Assembly: GCA_963709585.1 (NCBI GenBank)
Contig: CAVPXI010000006.1
Span: 192,001-256,000, forward strand
Length of the DNA stretch: 64,000 nucleotides
DNA from: Candidatus Dormiibacterota bacterium
GTDB lineage: Bacteria; Chloroflexota; Dormibacteria; Aeolococcales; Aeolococcaceae
Direction: 5' to 3'
The notes below the pieces were generated by a model. It did no database searches and was not told where the DNA came from. It saw only the letters and a program-made list of their open reading frames with translations. Made by a program: the position numbers and the translations under genes. Positions 32,244 through 43,740 of the stretch are shown one piece after another (position 1 is the first letter of the stretch; every line of letters begins with the position of its first letter).

Positions 32244-33854
<1,611 letters not shown>

Positions 33855-33900: not shown

Positions 33901-33950
33901 TTAGCACTCGGGTGGTCTGACTGCTAGCGGGTGGCAGGGGGGAGTGCTAA
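33901..33950. promoter_or_regulatory. CIRCE (HrcA operator) plus an extra half-site upstream of groEL
   Basis: TTAGCACTC-N9-GACTGCTAG at 33901-33927 and a perfect half-site GAGTGCTAA at 33942-33950; extended -10 TGcTAAACT on the minus strand. Confidence 0.88.
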
Positions 33951-33954
33951 ACGA

Positions 33955-33998
33955 CGGCCGCCGGATCGCACCACCGCTGGTGCGATCCGGAAGGGCCG
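33955..33998 (-). terminator. Strong hairpin downstream of the acidic peptide gene
   Basis: Perfect 13-bp stem CCGGATCGCACCA-ccgc-TGGTGCGATCCGG (33961-33990) plus outer CGGCC/GGCCG pairing; only a weak U-tract. Confidence 0.65.
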
Positions 33999-34019
33999 CC
34001 CATTCCCTTCGGAACTCGG

Positions 34020-34208
34020 TCAGCGACCGGGGTTCTTGACGTGGCCTTCGGTGTCGTCCTCGTCAGGCGTCGCCCGAGGGAAAACCGAGGGCTGCTCGTC
34101 GGGGTCGGCGCTCCTGTTTGGGTACTTGTGTCCGGAGGTGTCCTCTTCGTCGGTCTCGTTGATCCGGACCCCCGGGGCTTCCTGCTCGTCTGCCTTGTCC
34201 GTGCTCAT
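34020..34208 (-). CDS. 62-aa acidic peptide with two D-E-[E/D]-D-T-[S/E]-G-H repeats
   Basis: SD AGGAGA 6 nt before ATG; MSTDKADEQEAPGVRINETDEEDTSGHKYPNRSADPDEQPSVFPRATPDEDDTEGHVKNPGR; own -10 box and 3' hairpin. Confidence 0.75.
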   Translation of the reverse strand: MSTDKADEQEAPGVRINETDEEDTSGHKYPNRSADPDEQPSVFPRATPDEDDTEGHVKNPGR

Positions 34209-34281
34209 TGCCTGTCTCCTGTGGCGGCTGGGCCGCTGCTGTTGTGTTGCCCACATTCTGCGGAATCGAGATGGGGGAGTC

Positions 34282-34320
34282 AGTCGTCCACCTGACAGCT
34301 TCCGTGTCGGCGATCTGACA
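34282..34320. promoter_or_regulatory. Tandem Crp/CooA-type boxes upstream of the peptide gene
   Basis: AGTCG-N6-TGACA (34282-34297) and TGTCG-N6-TGACA (34305-34320, inside the CCGTGTC/GACACGG inverted repeat); minus-strand -10 CAGAAT at 34260-34255. Confidence 0.6.
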
Positions 34321-34361
34321 CGGCGGGGCAGCGACGACAGCGCAGGGAGGAGCCGGCGAGA

Positions 34362-35057
34362 TCAGTCGTGCTGGCCTGCTCTCCGTTGCAGCAGTTCCGG
34401 CTTCCGGATCACGATGCGCCGGCCGTCCAGCTCGACATATCCCAGCCGCTCAAAGGCGTTGAGGACCTGGTTGACGCTCTGCCGCGAACCGCCAACCATG
34501 TTGGCGAGGTCCGACTGAGTCAGATGCAGGTCCAGCGCCCGCCCCCCCGGTACGGGGGTGCCGCGCTCGTCCGCGAGGCGGAGCAGCAGTTTCGCGACGC
34601 GACCGTGCAGGTCCAGGAAGACCAAGTCGGCGGCTTGGTCGGTGAGCCGGCGCACCATCGTTCCCAGCGACCGCAGGAGACGGTCGACCAGCTCGGGCGA
34701 ACCCCGAAGCGCTTCCAGCAACGCAGTTCGACTGATCAGCAACACTGTGGTGGCCTCGACCGCCGCGGCCGATGCCGACCTCAGACCGCCATCGACCGTG
34801 GGCAGCTCACCGAACACCGATGACGGTTCCAGGGTCACGAGCAGCATCTCGTCGCCGTCGGGCGAGCTCCGGTAGACCTTCACGAGGCCGGTGACGACAA
34901 CACACAGTGCGTCACCGGCGTCGTCCTCACGGAAGATGACCTCTCCGCGCGCATACGACCGCCGGACCGCTCTCTCGGCAAGCCGCTCCACGGCGTCCGG
35001 CGGAAGCGTCCCAAAGAGGGAGGTGTTCTGCAGGAGCGCCTCATCGCCGCTGGTCAT
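34362..35057 (-). CDS. Crp/Fnr family transcriptional regulator
   Basis: SD GGAGG; cNMP pocket FGELPTVDGGLRSASA; HTH LTQSDLANMVGGSRQSVNQVL. Confidence 0.93.
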   Translation of the reverse strand: MTSGDEALLQNTSLFGTLPPDAVERLAERAVRRSYARGEVIFREDDAGDALCVVVTGLVKVYRSSPDGDEMLLVTLEPSSVFGELPTVDGGLRSASAAAVEATTVLLISRTALLEALRGSPELVDRLLRSLGTMVRRLTDQAADLVFLDLHGRVAKLLLRLADERGTPVPGGRALDLHLTQSDLANMVGGSRQSVNQVLNAFERLGYVELDGRRIVIRKPELLQRRAGQHD

Positions 35058-35133
35058 TCGACGTGCCTCCCTGGGCGTCACGTTTACAGGCGCGCTCCGA
35101 CGGCGCCGGCGAATTGTAGAGTGCCGGAACACC

Positions 35134-35883
35134 ATGGGTGATCGCGATTCGACGAGAGACGTGCTGGCAGATCTGACACAGCTCGCGGCCGACCTCGGCC
35201 CGGTGCTCCGCCCCCGCCGCGACGAGGAGTTTCTGCAGGCAATCGTCGAAACCGCGCGCCTCGTCTTCGACGCAGCGGCCTGCTCGATCGCGCTCTTCGA
35301 CGAGCGCGAGGAGGAACTCGAGTTCCGTGTCGCCGCTGGGAGTGGCGCCGAGGCGACCATCGGCCTGCGTATCCCCGCAGATCGCGGGATCGCGGGCTGG
35401 GCGCTCATGTCCGGACAGTCGATCGCCGTCGACGACGTCCGCCAGGATCCCCGCTTCGCCGCGGATGTCGCCGAGCGCACCGGCTACGTGCCCAACGCGA
35501 TCATGGCCATGCCGCTGGAGAGCGATCGTCAGACCTTCGGCGTTATCGAGGTGCTCGACCGTCAGCGGGGTGGCGGCGAAGGCGTCGACGACATGGAGTT
35601 GCTCGCCTTGTTCGCCCGACAAGCGACCCTTGCGGTCGAGACATCGCGGATCTTCTCGGGCCTCGGACAGGCGATCCTCGAGTCGGCCGCGCTCGCGACC
35701 CAGCGAGACGACCTTCGCCTCGCCCTTGAGCAGCGAGCCGCTCAGGCACCGCGACCCCAGGCGGAGCTTGCCGAACTCGCGCTGCTCTTTCACGATCTCG
35801 GCGTCCTCGGGCCCGAGGAACGGCGTGTCGCAGCCCGCATTGCAGACGACTTTCTCGCATACGCACGCAAGCAGCGCCGGTGA
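35134..35883 (+). CDS. Stand-alone GAF domain protein
   Basis: AAACSIALFD, GIAGWA, VRQDPRF, AIMAMPL, FGVIEVLD; helical C-terminal extension. Confidence 0.88.
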   Translation: MGDRDSTRDVLADLTQLAADLGPVLRPRRDEEFLQAIVETARLVFDAAACSIALFDEREEELEFRVAAGSGAEATIGLRIPADRGIAGWALMSGQSIAVDDVRQDPRFAADVAERTGYVPNAIMAMPLESDRQTFGVIEVLDRQRGGGEGVDDMELLALFARQATLAVETSRIFSGLGQAILESAALATQRDDLRLALEQRAAQAPRPQAELAELALLFHDLGVLGPEERRVAARIADDFLAYARKQRR

Positions 35884-36686
35884 AGCCGGCCTGGGCGTGG
35901 CAGTTCGACCCGGCGACCCTGCAGCGAGTGCGGGCGTCGCTCCCATCGGCGATCTCACGTGAGTGGGCGTGGGAGGGGAGCACCGGGGCAGGCGTCAAGG
36001 TGGCGGTCATTGACAGCGGGATCGATGCTGCTTATCCCGGAGTCGGGCCCCTCGCCGGTGGTGCGGTCGTCGTTGCCGATGCCGACGCGCCGCGAGGCGC
36101 TCGTGTTATCGAGGGGCCGCACGAGGATCTCTTCGGCCACGGCACGGCGTGTGCCGCGATCATTCGCCAGGCCGCGCCTGATGCCGAGCTGTACAGCATC
36201 AGGGTCCTTGGCGAACGGCTGACGGGACGCGGCATCGTGTTCGCCGAGGGCATGCGCTGGGCGCTCGCTGAAGGCATGCAGGTGCTCAACATGAGTCTGA
36301 GCACGTCGCGCGCAGACTACTTCGGGGTGTTCCACGAGATCGCCGACGACGCCTATTTCCAGGGAGCGATGGTCGTGTGCGCCGTCAACAACGTCCGCGC
36401 GCCAAGCTATCCGTCGCAGTACGCGTCGGTGTTTTCCGTCGCCGCTCACGAGGGACGGGATCCATTTCGCCTCGACTACAACCTCTCGCCACCGGTTGAA
36501 TTCGGAGCGCCTGGGATCGACCTCGAGGTCGGCTGGCTCGGCGGGAGGACCATTCGCGCGACCGGCAACAGCTTCGCGGCGCCGCACATCGCCGGATTGA
36601 TCGCTCGCATCCTCGGCAAGCATCCGGCGCTGACTCCGTTTCAGATGAAGACGGTCCTGATGGCGCTGGCGGACAACGCCTCGTAG
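35880..36686 (+). CDS. S8 (subtilisin-like) serine peptidase, apparently cytoplasmic
   Basis: Catalytic triad motifs VIDSG, HGTAC, GNSFAAPH; no signal peptide; GTGA overlap with the GAF gene. Confidence 0.92.
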   Translation: MKPAWAWQFDPATLQRVRASLPSAISREWAWEGSTGAGVKVAVIDSGIDAAYPGVGPLAGGAVVVADADAPRGARVIEGPHEDLFGHGTACAAIIRQAAPDAELYSIRVLGERLTGRGIVFAEGMRWALAEGMQVLNMSLSTSRADYFGVFHEIADDAYFQGAMVVCAVNNVRAPSYPSQYASVFSVAAHEGRDPFRLDYNLSPPVEFGAPGIDLEVGWLGGRTIRATGNSFAAPHIAGLIARILGKHPALTPFQMKTVLMALADNAS

Positions 36687-36701
36687 TCCGCGTCTGCCGC
36701 T

Positions 36702-36717
36702 TGTCGCTCTGCTGACA
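36702..36717. promoter_or_regulatory. Crp/CooA-type box upstream of a cNMP-binding gene
   Basis: TGTCG-CTCTGC-TGACA, centred about -42.5 relative to the -10 GACAAT (36740-36745). Confidence 0.55.
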
Positions 36718-36752
36718 GACATTGCACCCCCGTTTCGCTGACAATGCGAGAC

Positions 36753-37178
36753 ATGACTGACAAGAAAACGCTGGTCAACCTGCTGAGTCGCAATCAACTC
36801 TTCGACGAGCTGAACAAGAAGGATGTCCTCGCGCTGATCAACTCGGCGAAGGAAGTTGACCACCGCGAGGGTCAGATGATCGTGGTCGAGGGGCATCCCG
36901 GAGTCGGTTTTCATCTGCTTCTTCAGGGCACCGCGATCGTGAGCAGAAATGGCCGAAAGCTCCGGACGCTGGGGCCTGGCGAGACGTTCGGCGATATCGC
37001 GGTCATCGACGGAGGACCTCGCAGTGCGTCGGTGCAAGCAGCGACCGCGCTCCGCACCCTGTCTCTGCCGCCATGGGAGTTCAAACCTCTGCTCCTGGAG
37101 CACCCGCGGATCGCCTACAGGCTGCTCGTCAAGCTCTGCACGCTGCTCCGAGAGGCCGAGAAGCGGCCGCCGCTCTAG
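36753..37178 (+). CDS. Stand-alone cyclic nucleotide-binding protein 1
   Basis: LGPGETFGDIAVIDGGPRSASVQA; no HTH; alternative start at 36744. Confidence 0.9.
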   Translation: MTDKKTLVNLLSRNQLFDELNKKDVLALINSAKEVDHREGQMIVVEGHPGVGFHLLLQGTAIVSRNGRKLRTLGPGETFGDIAVIDGGPRSASVQAATALRTLSLPPWEFKPLLLEHPRIAYRLLVKLCTLLREAEKRPPL

Positions 37179-37219
37179 TCGCCTCGGGGCTGTGAACGCG
37201 GGGCTGATGCGTTCACACG

Positions 37220-40200
37220 TCAGGCACGCGCTTGTTGAGCCTCGGCCGCCGCTCCGGCGTCGAGCATGAGGGCGTCAACACGTTCGATCCACGGCGCGGC
37301 GGCGAGTTCGACGAATGACGTCCGCGCGGGTACGAACAACGCTTCGGCCTCGCCGCGCCGGCCACGATGCACGAGTGTGTCGCCGAGTTCCAATCGTGAG
37401 ACGGCGACCCAGAACGGCATCTGCCGCTGCTGAAACGCTGCGATCGCAGCGAGCGATTCTCGCATCGCGTCCTCTTCACGTCCCTCGAGCTCATCGAGGC
37501 GCGCGCGGAACCGCAGGATATGGGCATGCACGATCGGCCACACCGCGAGCGGGAAGCGTTCGGTTACCGCCTCGAGTAGCCGGCGTACCATCTTGAGGTC
37601 GCCCACGGCGAAAGCGGCTTCCACCGCCTCGACGATCGCCCAGCGCGAACCGTCGACAAAGTCCGAGGCGCCGCTGAAACGCTTTACGACGTCACCCATC
37701 AGCGCAAGGGCTTCACCGCTGCGCCCTTGCGCGCGGAGAATCGCGGAGCTCGCGGCGTCATGCGAGAGTTGATACTCGGGTCCCGCTCGCGCGCAGATGT
37801 CGGCCAAACGCTCGACGAGCCTGCGCGCATCGGGCTCCTCCCCGCGCCACACGTGGGGCCACGCCGCGAAGACCAGCTCGGCTCCGAGCAGCAAGTCCAC
37901 CACCACCACTTCTTTGGCAAGCAAGTCGGCCACCACGCCGCTGGCTTCATCCCAACGACCGAGGTCCACCAGCACGGGTATCCGCCCGATGAGAAATTGG
38001 ATCTCGTCTCGACGCAGTCCCATCAACCGTGCGAGGTCGAGCGCTGCGGCGGTGTATTCTGCCGCGCGCGCGGGTTCGAAACCCTGTAAAGAGGCAGCCA
38101 GGTTGTTATACGCACGCAACGCCGCTCCGTGAAGATCCGACGCAAGAGCCTGGTCGAGCGCACACGTCAGCAGGGCACGCGCCTCCTCGTGCCGTCCGCG
38201 ACCGCCGAGGATGAGTTCCTTGGTATTGACCGCCTGGCAGAACACCTGCGCATGTCCGTGTCGCTCGGCGAAGTCCAGGGCAAGTTCGACCCGCTCCATG
38301 GCGACGACGCCGCTGCGGCCGGACAGAACCATCCGGCGCGCGACCTCCGCCGCGACCACCGCCAGGTCCTCCTCGTGGTTGGCATCGCCAAACTCCACCG
38401 CGCTGAGCTCAACGAACGCGCGCTCCATCCGATCCGCGGCTTGGTCACGCTTCAATTCGTGAGCATCGATTTCGGCCAGGGTGATCGATGTCCGAGCAGC
38501 CGCGCCGAGACGACCGGCCGCCGCGTGCAGCGCAACCGCCTCGTCGAGATGCCGCCTGGCCTTTTGTGCATGGACCTGCTGCCACGCCATCTGTCCGGCG
38601 CGAGCGTGCAGCGTGGCCAGGTCAGCGGCGTCAGCGAGCTCAAGCGCACGTTCGTAGTAGTGCTCGGCGGACGCGGCGGCAGCGAGCGATGCTGCATGGT
38701 CGCCTGCTCGCACCAGCGCATCACGTGCACGCTGGCGGAGTCCCCCTGCGTCGAGGGCATCAACGTCAGCCTCGAACGCCTCGAGGAGGTGCGAGGCGAT
38801 GACTTCGGCAACTCCTTCCTCCTCGCTCCACGCGCTCTCCAGGTATGCGGCCGCGCTCAGGTGGCGCACCTTGCGATCGCGTCGGGACAGTGTCCCGTAC
38901 GCGACGCTCCGCACCAGGTCTTGCACAAAGACATACTGGCCGCGCTCGGGTGATCTCGGGTCCGACTGGATGGCAAGCAGATCTTTGCTGACCAGCGTGG
39001 CGAGGCCCGGCTCGACTGTGTCCGTCGCGAGCGCCGTGACCGCCCGCAGCCCTGCGGCGGTAAAGGATTTGCCGAGGACCGCCGCATCCTGCAACAGCTG
39101 ACGCTCGGCACCACCGATGCTGTCCAGCCGTGCGGCGATCAGAGCGTGGAGGGTCTCGGGGACCTCCAGCGAGTTCGAGCGATCCCTCGACGTGGAACGT
39201 GCCGCCCCTCGCGACGAGGAGGCCGCGGTCCATCAGCATCCGCACCGTTTCGACTGCGTAGAGAGGCACGCCCGCGGCGCGCTCGAGAATGCGCGCGCTC
39301 AGGTCGTCGGGAAGGCCTGGTGCCATGCCGGCCAGCAGCTGCGACATGGCCTCAGGCGGAAGCGGATCCAGAGAGAGCGAGGTGGACCCTCGCTTGCCCG
39401 TGCCCCAACCTGAACGACGATCGGCCATCTCCGGGCGCGCCAGCGTGATCACAAGGATCGGGGAGTTGCGCGACCACTCGAGGAGGTATTCGATGAAGTC
39501 AAGCAGACCGCTATCGGCCCATTGCAGATCCTCGAACACAAGGACGGTGAGGTTCTCTGCAGCGAGGCGCTCGAAGAAGAAGCGCCACGCCGCGTAGAGA
39601 TCGCGCGGATCCGTGGCGACGCGCTCCTCGAGACCGACGAGGTGCGCGAGGCGGGGTTCCACCCACCGCCGCTCCTCACCCGGCTCGACGAATTCCTCGA
39701 CGGTACGCCGCAACTTCTCACGCGCCAACTCCGGTGGCTCGTTGTCGAGAATGCCGGCACGCATACGCACCATCTCGCTCAGCGCCCAGTAGGCGACACC
39801 ATCTCCGTAGGCGAGACAGCGCCCGCGATGCCACCAGATGGGTTCCGTGACCCCGTCGACGTACTTGAAGAACTCCCAACCGAGGCGCGACTTCCCGACG
39901 CCGGCAAGGCCGACGATCGAGAGCAGGCGCGCCGTGCGCTCCTCGCCGGTCGCGTGCAGGAACTCCTTGATCAGTCGCAACTCCCGGTCGCGTCCGACGA
40001 ACGGCGGTTCCAGTCCGGTCGGGCGGAGCGCCCCTCCGGCCGCCGCAACGACGCGTTGCGCTCGCCACAGACGCTCCGGTTCAGGCTTTCCCTTGAGCTC
40101 GTGCACCCCAGTGTCCTCGTAAGCGATCGCGGCTTCCGTGGCGACGCGAGTCCCGTCACCGACATAGACAGCTCCGGGCTCAGCCGCTGCCTGCACGCGA

Positions 40201-40799
40201 GATGCAGTGTTGATGAGGTCGCCGGCGACCATCCCCTCGCCTCTCACTCCGACGCTGACCGCGACTTCGCCGGTCATCAGCCCCGCTCGGGCCTGCAGAC
40301 CGGCCGCACCGACCTCGTCGCCAAATGCGACGACGGCATCGACCAGCTCGAGCGCTGCGCGCACCGCTCGCTCGGCGTCGTTTTCTTGACTGGTGGGCAC
40401 GCCCCACACGGCCATGACAGCGTCGCCGATGAACTTTTCAACCTGGCCACCGTAGCGAGCGATGATCGTGCGCGCGGTGTCGAAGTAGCGACTCAGGAGT
40501 TCGCGGACGTCCTCAGCGTCGCGCTGCTGAGAGAGTGGTGTGAATCCCACCAGGTCGGCAAACAGCACGGTCACATGGCGGCGTTCGGTGAGACGCGCCG
40601 GCTCGATATGGGCTGGCGCAGATGAGGGGCTCGTCCGCGAGGGTTCCGCCGACAGCTGTGCGCCGCACCCGCCGCAAAAACGCTCGTCCTCGTCGTTCGG
40701 CGCCCCGCAGGCGGGGCAAGGCCGGTCCAGAGAGGAGCCACATTGGCCGCAAAAGCGCCGGCCCGCCCGGTTTGCGGAACCGCAGGCGGTGCAGGTCAT
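37220..40799 (-). CDS. Double zinc ribbon / class III nucleotidyl cyclase / STAND ATPase / TPR-like protein, split by a +1 insertion at ~39174 (probable error)
   Basis: Four CxxC; FADLVGFT, EKFIGDAVM, GDLINTASR; Walker A GLAGVGKS, Walker B VFEDLQWAD; restoring GACTC gives LDSLEVPETLHALIAARLD continuing into ORF 37220..39094. Confidence 0.9.
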
Positions 40800-40947
40800 C
40801 CGGGCAAGACTACTCGCCGCTGAGTAGGGTTGACGCTCGAGCCAGGCGAAGGCCGGGACCTTCAGCGATCCGGGGGGCGGGTCGAACTCAAGGTGAGCCC
40901 CGGTTACCTATGATGCACCGCGTCGACAGTGGAGTTGGGAGAACGCC

Positions 40948-41373
40948 ATGACAAGTCGGAGCGCGCAGGTCAACTTGCTCAGCGGGGTCGCGCTCTTCGC
41001 CGGGCTGACCAAGAAGGAGGCCGGGTTCGTGCTCCAATTCATGCGCGATCATGACTATCCGGCTGGGAAGGTCATTGTCGAAGAGGGCGAGATGGGTGGC
41101 CGTTTCTTTCTCATCGTCTCGGGCACCGCAGTGGTAACGCGACGCGGACGTCGTATTCGCAGACTGGGTCCTGGCGATTCGTTCGGAGACATCGCGCTCA
41201 TCGATGGAGGTCCACGATCAGCGACGGTGGCGGCGGAAACACCCGTCAGTACGTTGTCGCTGGCAGTCTGGAATTTCAAGGCAACGCTGCTCGAGAGTCC
41301 GAGCATCACCTACAAGCTGCTGCTGGCCCTTTGCAGAAGACTGCGTGATGCGGAGTCGCGCGCGCCGATCTGA
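40948..41373 (+). CDS. Stand-alone cyclic nucleotide-binding protein 2
   Basis: LGPGDSFGDIALIDGGPRSATVAA; clear paralog of 36753..37178. Confidence 0.9.
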   Translation: MTSRSAQVNLLSGVALFAGLTKKEAGFVLQFMRDHDYPAGKVIVEEGEMGGRFFLIVSGTAVVTRRGRRIRRLGPGDSFGDIALIDGGPRSATVAAETPVSTLSLAVWNFKATLLESPSITYKLLLALCRRLRDAESRAPI

Positions 41374-41383
41374 CCCCCGAGCG

Positions 41384-42658
41384 TCAGGCCACGTCCTGAT
41401 GCCCGACACTCGCGTCGGCGACATTCCCTTCGATGGCGACAACGCGGTCCAGCACGCCCTGACGCAACCCATCGAGCCCGTTACGCACGTCGCCGGTTGC
41501 AGTCGCGATAGAAGTGAGCTTGGACTTCATACCGGCGATCGCATTGAGCTGCGAGCGAATGCCCTCGAGGTCGCGACGAACCGCCGCGGCATCGACAACG
41601 TCCGCATGATCCCTGACCGCGACGAGCGCCAGGGCGCGAGCGAGACGCACGGCGGCCGTGAACGCCGTGTCGTCCGGATCGTCCGGATCGAGTTCGCAGA
41701 TGATGTGCTCGCCGTGCAGCGTGAACGGCGCGCATCCTGCCGGAGAGTTGCCCGCGCGATACACGGCCACAGCCACCACCGCATCGCGATTGCGCCGGGT
41801 CTCATCGAGATCGCGGCAGAGCTTGGCCAGCCCGACCCGACCGCTCTTGGCCTCGACCGCAACGCGGACGGGAAGGCCGCGCGTCCACGAGGGATCAAGC
41901 GTGATCAGAAAGTCGCCTTTGCGACTGCGTACGCTGTTGCCGACAGCGGTCCCGGTCGGCTCGACAAGATCACCGGTCCCGCGCAGCAGCGTGTCGAGAC
42001 GAGCCTCGACGGCATCCTCGAAGTCCAGCCCCTTGGCGGTGCCCTTCTCCCGCTCGTCTGAGCGCGCGTCGCGTGCGGCCTCGAGGCGAATCAGGCGATC
42101 GCTGACGTCCTTCAGCATCTCGCGCATCTCGCCGCGAAATCCATGCAGTGGACTGGCCGCGAGACGCGGATCGAGCATCCGGCTGATGATCGCGCCGTCG
42201 CCGTCGAAATAGCCGGACAGCAACGTGCGCATGCGGCCGATCGCGCTGTCGCGCCGCTCCTCGTCGAAGAGATCGTCGACCAGGCGGCGCAAGGTGCCGT
42301 TCTCGCCGAGGAATTGGTCAAGCGTCCTTGGGAGCTTCCCATCCTTGGCGGCGAACGTCTCGCGCAGTGCGACGTCCAGGGCCGCGGCCGCTCTGTCATG
42401 CGACTCGTCGGTGCGATGCATGAGCCGCTCGAACTCGCGTGCGACGAAGTCGACGTTGAGCGTGACGCCGGCATTGCGCAGCGCGATGAGGCCGACCTTG
42501 AGCCCGCGCTCTACCACCGCCGGCCGATCAACCTCGGGGTGATCGCCGACGTACGCCGCCAATTCGGCGTCGTAGAGGGAAAGACCCGTGACGGCGATGT
42601 GGTCTCCCTCGACGCGAACGTCGCATCCAAGGGTGATGGGTTCTACCTTCCTGAGCAT
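41384..42658 (-). CDS. Coiled-coil protein with PD-(D/E)xK-like nuclease domain (RmuC/DUF2130-like)
   Basis: KGLDFEDAV...KGDFLI...VAVEAKSG flanked by helical or coiled-coil regions; SD GAGGA. Confidence 0.6.
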   Translation of the reverse strand: MLRKVEPITLGCDVRVEGDHIAVTGLSLYDAELAAYVGDHPEVDRPAVVERGLKVGLIALRNAGVTLNVDFVAREFERLMHRTDESHDRAAAALDVALRETFAAKDGKLPRTLDQFLGENGTLRRLVDDLFDEERRDSAIGRMRTLLSGYFDGDGAIISRMLDPRLAASPLHGFRGEMREMLKDVSDRLIRLEAARDARSDEREKGTAKGLDFEDAVEARLDTLLRGTGDLVEPTGTAVGNSVRSRKGDFLITLDPSWTRGLPVRVAVEAKSGRVGLAKLCRDLDETRRNRDAVVAVAVYRAGNSPAGCAPFTLHGEHIICELDPDDPDDTAFTAAVRLARALALVAVRDHADVVDAAAVRRDLEGIRSQLNAIAGMKSKLTSIATATGDVRNGLDGLRQGVLDRVVAIEGNVADASVGHQDVA

Positions 42659-42861
42659 CGCTCTTCCTCACTTCTCTACCCCGCCACGGATCTCCGGCTG
42701 TGAGCGTCGGGTACCCCGGCGACAGGTGCCTGTCGCGTCAACCGCGCTCAGCGAGGACGTGCGCGCGCTGTCCGGGTCGGCCAATCAGGATCGCCACATG
42801 ATGGGGCAGGTCACCCCACGAGGGAGCAAACCGCCTCTGTGGGGTACGATACAATCGTGTC

Positions 42862-43194
42862 ATGACACAATCGCACGAGTTGCGATCCACCGCCGCCTCG
42901 ATCCTCGCCCTGGCCCGGCTCAAAGCCGGTCTCAGTCAGCAACAACTGGCGCAGCGGGCGGGCGTCTCGGCGACCATGATCTCGGCGTACGAGCGCGACC
43001 TTCGTCAGCCGACCGTTCCGACCCTCGAGCGCCTTCTTGCAGCTGCCGGCCTCGAACTGCGCTACCACCTCGAGCCGCGCGACCTCCATGACGAGGTGCT
43101 TGCAAAGCTTGACTCCCACAGGACGCCTGCCGAGCGGAAGCGACGCGACCGGCAGATCGAAGTCTGGCGTCGGGCAACTCGCCTTCCTGGATAA
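42862..43194 (+). CDS. XRE-family HTH protein (putative antitoxin)
   Basis: ARLKAGLSQQQLAQRAGVSATMISAYERDLRQPTVPTLERLL. Confidence 0.9.
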   Translation: MTQSHELRSTAASILALARLKAGLSQQQLAQRAGVSATMISAYERDLRQPTVPTLERLLAAAGLELRYHLEPRDLHDEVLAKLDSHRTPAERKRRDRQIEVWRRATRLPG

Positions 43195-43197
43195 GCA

Positions 43198-43731
43198 ATG
43201 GCTCACGTCGTTCCGGACCCCCAGCTCAACGCGACAAGAATCGTCTCGATTCTCAACAAACACGGCGTCCTGTACATCGTCATCGGAGCCTTCGCGGCAA
43301 TAAGTCAGCGCGCTCCGATTCCGCCGACCAGGCATATTGACTTCACGCCCGAAACAAGCCGACCCAACCTCGACCGGCTCTCCGCCGCGCTCAAGGAGCT
43401 CAATGCTCGAATCCGCACCGCTACCGTTCCGGGAGGCCTGGCCTTTGACCATGACGGGGCGTCGCTCGCCAACGCGACCGTCTGGAACCTGATCTGTCCG
43501 GATGGTGAGTTCGACCTGTCGTTTCAGCCTGCGGCATTTGCGGGCGGCTACTCCGATCTCGCACCCCAGGCACACCGCATTTCGGTTGGGGGTGTCGAGG
43601 TTCTCGTCGCGAGCCTCGCTGATGTCATTCGATCAAAGGAAGCTGCTGGACGGCCCAAGGATCTGCGTGTCCTGCCCACACTCTACCGCCACCTCGAGCG
43701 GCTCGACAAAGAGACCGAAAGCACAAAGTAA
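43198..43731 (+). CDS. Nucleotidyltransferase-fold protein (putative TA partner)
   Basis: YIVIGAFAA...PTRHIDF...FDL...ASLADVIRSKEAAGRPKD; starts 3 nt after the XRE gene. Confidence 0.75.
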   Translation: MAHVVPDPQLNATRIVSILNKHGVLYIVIGAFAAISQRAPIPPTRHIDFTPETSRPNLDRLSAALKELNARIRTATVPGGLAFDHDGASLANATVWNLICPDGEFDLSFQPAAFAGGYSDLAPQAHRISVGGVEVLVASLADVIRSKEAAGRPKDLRVLPTLYRHLERLDKETESTK

Positions 43732-43740
43732 TCCGCGCGA

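Follow-up and report, generated by a model that had tools for sequence, protein, structure and literature searches.

A conserved cyclic-nucleotide-linked gene cassette combining a GAF protein, a subtilisin-like protease and a repeat peptide in Dormibacteria and other bacteria

The locus and its conserved core

We analyzed a 64-kb stretch of DNA (64,000 nucleotides, called the window throughout) from a Candidatus Dormiibacterota bacterium whose genome measures 3.5 Mb at 67% G+C (GenBank assembly GCA_963709585.1, contig CAVPXI010000006.1, positions 192,001 to 256,000). Seven contiguous genes in the window encode a short repeat peptide, a Crp/FNR-family regulator, a GAF protein, an S8 (subtilisin-like) protease, two stand-alone proteins that bind cyclic nucleoside monophosphates (cNMPs) and, between these last two, a zinc-ribbon/class III cyclase/STAND/TPR protein (Table 1). 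The original prediction, made from the letters alone, took them to be a signaling system built around the STAND cyclase. Open reading frame (ORF) listing and Pfam place all seven genes where it had put them, and every domain call holds. Comparison across loci further bears out a conserved cyclic-nucleotide-linked module that includes the protease and the repeat peptide, and it moves the cyclase from the center to the periphery.

Scanning species-representative genomes with the protease gave 28 loci, and full-length protease relatives (48–56% identity) were present in 21 of 151 sampled genomes of the same phylum, 14 of whose loci were taken into the comparison; an unpublished genome among the 21 contributed no data. 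We counted co-occurrence over 43 loci including the window (20 from Dormibacteria, 8 from Actinomycetota and 15 from other Chloroflexota), several of which reach contig ends. A GAF gene adjoins the protease gene in 41 of the 43 (19/20, 7/8 and 15/15 in the three groups, respectively), and a Crp gene lies within 5 kb of it in 36 (19/20, 6/8 and 11/15). Within the same distance, the peptide is recognized by profile in 27 loci (17/20, 2/8 and 8/15) and a major facilitator superfamily (MFS) transporter gene in 22 (11/20, 4/8 and 7/15); a cyclase lies within 8.5 kb in 18 (15/20, 1/8 and 2/15). The genes of the other Chloroflexota stand on one strand in the order MFS-cNMP, Crp, box, peptide, GAF, S8. 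This neighborhood comparison, which had been proposed as a check on the prediction, supports the tie of the S8/GAF pair to Crp and the peptide and does not support a system built around the cyclase. The conserved core, found in three bacterial groups, is Crp, repeat peptide, GAF and S8, usually with a cNMP-binding protein or an MFS-cNMP fusion.

We read the core as a cNMP-wired cassette, in which a Crp-induced repeat protein would be processed by a GAF-restrained S8 protease, with export by an MFS-cNMP protein in most lineages and with cyclases as inputs; we put the probability of this reading at about 0.55. Among 8.4 million papers and preprints, supplementary files excluded, we found no account of a combination of GAF, subtilisin, cNMP-binding protein, MFS transporter, precursor peptide and Crp, and the peptide motif returned only unrelated work, in keeping with the earlier view that the combination is undescribed.

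Table 1. Features of the locus, in window coordinates
Feature	Position	Strand	Evidence and remarks
groEL (outside the finding)	32244-33854	-	ORF listing, start-codon inspection, Pfam
Stem-loop, likely terminator	33957-34019	-	Directly 3' of peptide stop codon; RNA fold
Repeat-peptide gene, 62 aa	34020-34208	-	ORF and Shine-Dalgarno; two (D/E)D-T-x-G-H motifs, DTSGH and DTEGH
Tandem Crp-type boxes 5' of peptide gene	34282-34320	-	34305-34320 exact TGTCRG-N4-CYGACA; 34282-34297 degenerate
Crp/FNR-family regulator, 231 aa	34362-35057	-	Pfam cNMP_binding 1.6e-22, HTH_Crp_2 2.1e-18
Divergent crp/GAF intergenic region	35058-35133		Invariant GTAGAGTGCC 9-18 bp 5' of GAF start
GAF protein, 249 aa	35134-35883	+	Pfam GAF 2.3e-18; C-terminal helical region after GAF domain
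Cytoplasmic S8 (subtilisin-like) protease, 268 aa	35880-36686	+	Peptidase_S8 1.2e-24; overlaps GAF gene by GTGA
Crp-type box between S8 gene and first cNMP-binding gene	36702-36717	+	TGTC-N8-GACA
Stand-alone cNMP-binding protein 1, 141 aa from 36753	36753-37178	+	cNMP_binding 4.6e-15; ORF opens 36744
Zinc-ribbon/class III cyclase/AAA_16 (STAND)/TPR protein, ~1190 aa	37220-40799	-	DZR, Guanylate_cyc, AAA_16; weak C-terminal TPR_10 (0.0038)
Stand-alone cNMP-binding protein 2, 141 aa	40948-41373	+	cNMP_binding 3.4e-17; 51% identical to protein 1

Crp-type boxes and the repeat-peptide family

The regulator of the locus matches PF00027 (79.7 bits) and PF13545 (66.5 bits) above their cut-offs, placing it in the Crp/FNR family, and scores 82.8 bits against a cut-off of 266 for the CRP equivalog NF008732. 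Its cNMP pocket appears intact, as had been predicted, with FGE...RSA read in the sequence. A first tblastn search made it look like the only Crp of its genome, an idea ruled out by nine HTH_Crp_2 proteins above the cut-off, the window Crp among them; it is probably a local regulator.

A shared TGTCG-N6-TGACA box had been noted before the peptide gene and one cNMP-binding gene. The exact pattern occurs at two sites in the 64 kb (34305 and 36702), and with one mismatch allowed the window holds four matches against 4.9 expected, a count that is little proof by itself. We judge the box real because its position and sequence are conserved across loci. In all 16 Dormibacteria sequences, the first box of the peptide gene (TGTCAG-N4-CCGACA; consensus TGTCRG-N4-CYGACA) lies 111–116 bp from the peptide ATG, with 12 matching TGT-N10-ACA exactly and the other 4 differing solely in the last base. 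After a gap of 7 bp comes a second, looser box on the downstream side, its start 23 bp from that of the first, and a conserved (C/A)AGAAT element precedes the ATG by about 45–50 bp. If this element is the -10 box, the operators would sit near -41 and -64, an activator layout. The window and seven more Dormibacteria loci carry TGTC-N8-GACA between the genes for the protease and cNMP-binding protein 1 (in one of the seven, L023, the latter gene is far off), and TGTC-N8-GACA followed by GACAA is conserved in 7/7 aligned loci. In an actinomycete locus (L018), two copies of the box separate the peptide and cNMP-binding genes; several Chloroflexota loci have it immediately 3' of crp.

The strict box pattern has four exact matches genome-wide, this locus and three in two MarR promoters. 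We considered a wider Crp regulon and rejected it, because the remaining matches belong to two duplicated MarR/glyoxalase promoters, where they form tandem palindromes with AT-rich spacers. At both sites (C15:29570-29613 and C21:124662-124706), tandem TGTCAG-N4-CTGACA palindromes 28–29 bp apart accompany near-identical divergent MarR/glyoxalase-family gene pairs; these are probably MarR operators that resemble the Crp box by chance or descent.

The peptide gene had been credited with its own Shine-Dalgarno sequence, promoter and 3' hairpin. The Shine-Dalgarno sequence is GGAGAC, and the hairpin folds at -49.4 kcal/mol (z -5.2), a stability equaled by none of 200 shuffles. A simple sigma-70 scan gave no match at the starts of the peptide, GAF or cNMP-binding genes, and we infer the promoter only from the (C/A)AGAAT element. 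The GAF start has no Shine-Dalgarno sequence; GTAGAGTGCC is invariant upstream of it in an alignment of 10 Dormibacteria loci and could be the -10 element of a short-leader transcript. Just 5' of the peptide Shine-Dalgarno sequence, a GCGG/CCGC stem (34221-34239, - strand RNA) is kept in 15/15 Dormibacteria loci; we rejected it as a structured element, since four of its five pairs are invariant and there is no real covariation.

Open frames carrying two to six (D/E)D(T/V)EGH motifs are present in 17 loci. The 15 Dormibacteria frames share the GGAGAC sequence and a related N-terminus, many also an SDPDF motif. Invariance is confined to the start Met, the Asp, Gly and His of two motifs and the Glu of the second. 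Proteins of distant loci hold up to about eight near-identical repeats, with spacers wholly different between species. A profile search of 5.8 billion proteins yielded 162 relatives; the 120 listed of these contain no Pfam domain, and those with a name are called hypothetical protein. The window peptide likewise has no Pfam or NCBIfam match. On this sequence evidence, the peptide represents a real, unannotated gene family. A profile built on Dormibacteria peptides matched 4 of the 151 sampled genomes, all four of which have the protease, and is too narrow for usable absence data; its three matches outside the genome of the window lie 1–2 kb from the protease gene. That genome also holds a second, more degenerate copy (C4:305778-305957). 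It carries DDDTKGH and a decayed last motif, its promoter repeats the arrangement of two boxes and AAGAAT, and no GAF-S8 pair lies anywhere near it.

The repeat protein might instead be no substrate at all, serving as an acidic, histidine-bearing, disordered metal-binding or stress protein under Crp, with GAF-S8 as a separate housekeeping protease. Asp, Glu, Gly and His as invariant motif residues would suit metal binding, the spacers of one locus (L036) are histidine-rich, and the window copy stands beside groEL. However, adjacency to groEL is limited to the window and its sister contig L001, whereas in several other Chloroflexota (L031–L034 and L042; L041 by profile only) the peptide gene lies directly 5' of GAF-S8 on the same strand, and it lies elsewhere within about 2 kb. 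Near-identical repeats around a conserved short motif, with species-specific spacers, are also better suited to a multi-copy precursor. We therefore regard this alternative as unlikely and favor the repeat protein as a substrate of the protease.

Of the 14 loci scanned with Pfam, two have peptide-maturation genes next to the cassette. In one (L037:4379-13193), from a Chloroflexota genome of 46% G+C, GAF-S8 has a RamC_N/kinase/LanC-like lanthipeptide synthetase gene on one side and an MFS gene on the other, after which comes a cyclase/NB-ARC/TPR gene, and the flanks examined contain neither Crp nor a DxEGH peptide. In the other (L029:8861-13942), a sulfotransferase-like gene comes after GAF-S8-Crp, and then a gene weakly matching Frankia_peptide (35.4 bits, cut-off 48) and one for a YcaO-TfuA fusion, signs of a nearby thioamide-type peptide pathway. 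The best NCBIfam names within the cassette (QhpE, TOMM kinase/cyclase fusion and bacteriocin-transport-associated cNMP protein) all score below their cut-offs; together with the neighbors in L037 and L029, they lend side support to a role in peptide maturation.

The GAF-protease pair, the exporter and the cyclase

The protease matches PF00082 at 87.6 bits (cut-off 21.8), which makes it a member of the S8 family, and aligns with subtilisin BPN' (3e-29) with the catalytic triad in place; D45, H87, S231 and the oxyanion N170 are invariant in 24 sequences. It is encoded once in the genome and has no propeptide domain (Pfam). Two earlier statements hold for this pair: the protease lacks a signal peptide, its N-terminus not being hydrophobic, and the two genes are translationally coupled, with a 4-bp overlap that 20 of 25 related loci share with the window. 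The N-terminal extension (residues 1–30; 35880-35970) contains a P-A-W-x3-F motif that is invariant across the three bacterial groups and lies outside the predicted GAF interface.

Structure prediction gave the GAF-S8 complex a score of 0.78, compared with 0.00 for the best of three controls; that mark is reached by 116 of 157 solved complexes and by 2 of 215 mismatched pairs. At least 86% of contacts recur between runs, with partner pLDDT (predicted local distance difference test) of at least 70. Confident contacts join GAF residues 89–99, a hairpin, to D45, H87, S231 and segments 110–115, 139–146 and 168–175 of the protease, so that the hairpin is predicted to sit in the catalytic cleft, where a substrate or inhibitor would lie. 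The model supports binding of GAF to S8 and does not show it, and we know of no solved GAF-subtilisin complex. The GAF protein itself was modeled by AlphaFold at pLDDT 82. Its profile finds CyaB2 (5.7e-34) and Lcd1 with cAMP (7.4e-28) as best solved matches, then PDE2, PDE5 and PDE10; all of the top 12 are cNMP-binding GAF domains except 4mcw, and a fold search ranks Lcd1 with cAMP first (30% identity). Among the ligand-contact positions, T116 is kept, and Ala113 and Pro120 differ from the solved cNMP-binding domains. A cyclic nucleotide is thus a plausible ligand of the GAF protein.

The same observations could be accommodated by a GAF protein that acts in trans as a folding helper, replacing the missing subtilisin propeptide, rather than as a ligand-gated switch. 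Strict pairing, coupled genes and the absence of a propeptide domain would all fit such a helper, as would a predicted interface in the very cleft that propeptides and inhibitors occupy. Yet the GAF protein is nearest in fold and sequence to ligand-binding cNMP GAF domains, and help with folding is compatible with inhibition, so that the two readings overlap. We consider a pure folding helper quite unlikely and retain the GAF protein as a candidate ligand-responsive restraint.

The commoner partner of the core, overlooked in the original prediction, is an MFS transporter fused to a cNMP-binding domain: weak cNMP matches in 14 distant loci proved to be the C-terminal domain of an MFS_1/MFS_3 transporter (Pfam, 130 proteins). 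In the Dormibacteria locus L007, a fusion of about 600 aa, which matches antiporter and EntS-type efflux models below their cut-offs, is encoded just downstream of the cyclase on the same strand. The genome of the window encodes an exporter 81% identical to it on contig C23, between two cyclase-STAND paralogs. In the window, the two free-standing cNMP-binding genes hold the exporter's place, and the cassette is split over two contigs; the original prediction has such a protein as a putative cNMP buffer. Orthologs of cNMP-binding protein 1 occur in seven Dormibacteria loci at 69–95% identity; its gene more likely starts at 36753 than at 36744, because the aligned orthologs share a GGGAGA-N-GACATGAC start region.

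The C23 region (C23:194001-208000) forms a second cyclic-nucleotide island, with a cyclase-STAND gene (+), the MFS-cNMP exporter gene (-) and another cyclase-STAND gene (+). Both cyclases shift frame between their N- and C-terminal parts, probably through further assembly indels. Because they change frame like the window cyclase, indel errors may be scattered in this assembly.

The window cyclase is split into two overlapping frames (38766-40799 and 37220-39094). Alignment with about 20 orthologous and paralogous copies reveals one extra base near 39174 (GAAC instead of GAC), and contigs from 4/4 public soil runs, all of one study and one of them near-identical to the window and possibly its source sample, omit one letter there. 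A decaying pseudogene is ruled out by these relatives and contigs. The sequences indicate that the frameshift is an assembly error; because all four soil-run contigs omit the extra base, the gene is taken to be intact in nature, at about 1190 aa, and the intact ortholog of L007 measures 1193 aa. Once corrected, the protein is a class III cyclase with a STAND module (PF00211 77.1 bits, PF13191 77.9 bits, TPR_10 weak), in which the metal-binding Asp residues and an NTASR motif can be read, and Pfam finds no LuxR-type helix-turn-helix in it.

Several observations place this gene outside the core. Contig L001, at 95% identity, runs collinear with the window for 16.8 kb; it holds 26 bp in place of window positions 37189-40870, which comprise the entire cyclase gene, and it keeps all other genes, with the two cNMP-binding genes in tandem. 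The genome of the window encodes 19 cyclase domains, including six further zinc-ribbon cyclase-STAND copies that are 58–71% identical over the whole N-terminal part. Syntenic orthologs of the window cyclase are nonetheless present in at least 10 Dormibacteria loci, with 80–89% identity in the N-terminal half; C-terminal identity is 70% in L007 and L008 and 61–63% in another seven loci, and L005 aligns as two pieces at 76% and 58%. A hypervariable TPR region, which we had considered, is ruled out by the 61–70% C-terminal identity in nine loci. Linkage of the cyclase is real within Dormibacteria but lies outside the core, making it an accessory input and not the hub that had been predicted.

It is against this background that a closed loop, with the peptide or its cleavage product as ligand of the TPR/STAND part and positive feedback centered on the cyclase, has to be weighed. 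TPR domains bind short acidic peptide motifs, the cyclase is near the protease and syntenic in much of Dormibacteria, and it stands directly upstream of the MFS-cNMP gene in L007, as a cyclase/NB-ARC/TPR gene follows GAF-S8-MFS in L037. However, L001 does without the cyclase while keeping the rest, the gene is rarely near in the other two groups, its nearness in Dormibacteria is partly background given the many similar copies in the genome, and nothing ties the peptide to the TPR region. We find such a loop improbable, and cyclases as accessory inputs to the cassette remain our preferred reading. A Pycsar-type anti-phage defense is very improbable: PADLOC PycC models match the cyclase domain (best 3.2e-20) and PycTIR models the cNMP-binding proteins (~4e-13), but these matches are confined to the cyclase and cNMP-binding domains, both 141-aa proteins are single-domain and lack the TIR or transmembrane effector fused to the cNMP-binding domain in Pycsar, and a Crp with conserved operators, stable synteny across phyla and groEL-type housekeeping neighbors are unlike a defense island.

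Two further features flank the cassette. Upstream of groEL (33901-33950) lies a CIRCE-like inverted repeat, TTAGCACTC-N9-GACTGCTAG, whose right arm has two mismatches, with a perfect GAGTGCTAA arm 14 bases beyond it; by comparison with the CIRCE consensus, the site resembles an HrcA operator whose right arm is duplicated. On the other side, a stretch of 2.4 kb (41377-43740), possibly a small variable island, diverges from L001, which has 1.1 kb there. ORFs in it include one of 424 aa (41384-42658, -), which shows a D...EAK nuclease-like motif, and two more at 42811-43575 and 43198-43731; neither 41384-42658 nor 43198-43731 is matched by Pfam, NCBIfam or PADLOC.

Proposed mechanism and comparison with known systems

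In the mechanism that we propose, cAMP or cGMP from the neighboring zinc-ribbon cyclase-STAND protein, or from any other cyclase of the genome, would load Crp, which would then bind the tandem boxes and switch on the peptide gene and the first cNMP-binding gene. The GAF beta-hairpin (residues ~89–99) in the substrate cleft would keep the protease inactive until a small ligand on the GAF protein, possibly also a cyclic nucleotide, frees it. The repeat protein, which we view as a small disordered protein with repeated (D/E)n-(T/V)-E-G-H motifs, would be cut by the freed protease at or beside the conserved motifs, and the fragments would exit through the cNMP-gated MFS transporter. A bolder version, which we offer only tentatively, is a bacterial peptide factory of a new kind, with a single second messenger as its gate at three levels; in it, a polyprotein cut at (T/V)-E-G-H would give many species-specific peptide copies, exported as a signal or metal-binding agent, and the GAF plug would be a pseudo-substrate released by ligand.

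A number of points weigh against this mechanism. The peptide was not found in 16 of the 43 loci and an MFS gene not within 5 kb in 21, although some contigs end early. No modification enzyme is conserved beside the peptide (130 proteins, 14 loci, Pfam), the peptide has no signal peptide, and the window contains no exporter, so that the case for export comes from other genomes. Part of the cleft-filling pose may stem from the many solved subtilisin-inhibitor complexes, and strict substrate mimicry is not conserved, because the position following the hairpin glycine holds Gln in 11 and Glu in 3 of 14 diverse GAF partners. By profile alignment, GAF Ala113 falls at the place of CyaB2 GAFb Asp356, named as a cAMP-contacting residue in a published account (PMC4411481). 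Pro120 stands where four solved domains all have Thr, and the GAF ligand may not be a cyclic nucleotide. More generally, we infer ligand binding, DNA binding, cleavage and export, and with them every step beyond the association of the genes.

If the mechanism is correct, a GAF plug that leaves its protease on binding a ligand would be an unprecedented principle of regulation and a new way to restrain an intracellular subtilisin. Widespread uncultured soil bacteria of the Dormibacteria, other Chloroflexota and some Actinomycetota would use cyclic nucleotides to control the production of processed peptides, encoded by a gene family absent from annotation, giving a function to part of the puzzlingly large cyclase and cNMP-binding sets of these genomes. 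The pieces are small and soluble, so the central claims are directly testable in vitro. The locus also illustrates that a gene seemingly central in one window can be an optional neighbor and that an apparent pseudogene can be an assembly error. New in this analysis are the frameshift correction, the presence or absence of the cyclase between sister strains, the fixed-distance tandem operators, the split over two contigs and the cleft-filling GAF model with its controls.

The components resemble known systems to differing degrees. CooA is a CRP/FNR regulator with a TGTCA-type operator, and the window Crp is like such regulators in domain make-up, in a palindromic box with arms of 5–6 bp and in an activation-compatible position; its half-site is TGTC(A/G)G, in contrast to the TGTGA of E. 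coli CRP. The GAF domains of Anabaena CyaB2, Leptospira Lcd1 and PDE2/5/10 are the nearest solved relatives of the window GAF by profile (5.7e-34 to 3e-20) and by fold, but the window GAF, instead of being a regulatory domain within a cyclase or phosphodiesterase, is a protein of its own with a protease as its predicted docking partner, and has Ala113 and Pro120 in place of their Asp/Glu and Thr.

The Rv0386 group comprises mycobacterial-type class III adenylyl cyclases with an ATPase/STAND and TPR module. TIGR03903 (TOMM kinase/cyclase fusion), presumably tied to peptide-maturation clusters, as its name suggests, is the best NCBIfam match of the N-terminal half of the window cyclase (6.7e-45). 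With both, the cyclase shares the combination of cyclase, AAA_16 and TPR region; it differs in having an N-terminal double zinc ribbon and not a kinase, as well as in lacking the LuxR-type helix-turn-helix, and it scores 153.4 bits against the TIGR03903 cut-off of 705.75.

QhpE, a cytoplasmic S8 enzyme, trims a small peptide subunit as quinohemoprotein amine dehydrogenase matures. Its model (NF049966) is the best NCBIfam match of the window protease (1e-30), at 106.7 bits and below the cut-off of 165, and no amine-dehydrogenase genes were seen in the loci scanned with Pfam. Multi-copy precursors cut by S8 proteases are known from the cyanobactin PatE with PatA/PatG and from yeast alpha-factor with Kex2. 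Unlike these, the window protease is a bare 268-aa catalytic domain, paired with GAF and placed under Crp/cNMP control, with cleavage proposed here. No heterocyclase, oxidase or macrocyclase domain is conserved across the 14 loci (Pfam), the YcaO of L029 is the sole one among the 130 proteins, and the precursor has no Pfam match, which sets the cassette apart from cyanobactin-type clusters. What it has in common with PatE and alpha-factor is the arrangement itself: a subtilisin-family protease encoded beside a small protein in which a short conserved motif alternates with variable stretches, in a copy number that depends on the species.

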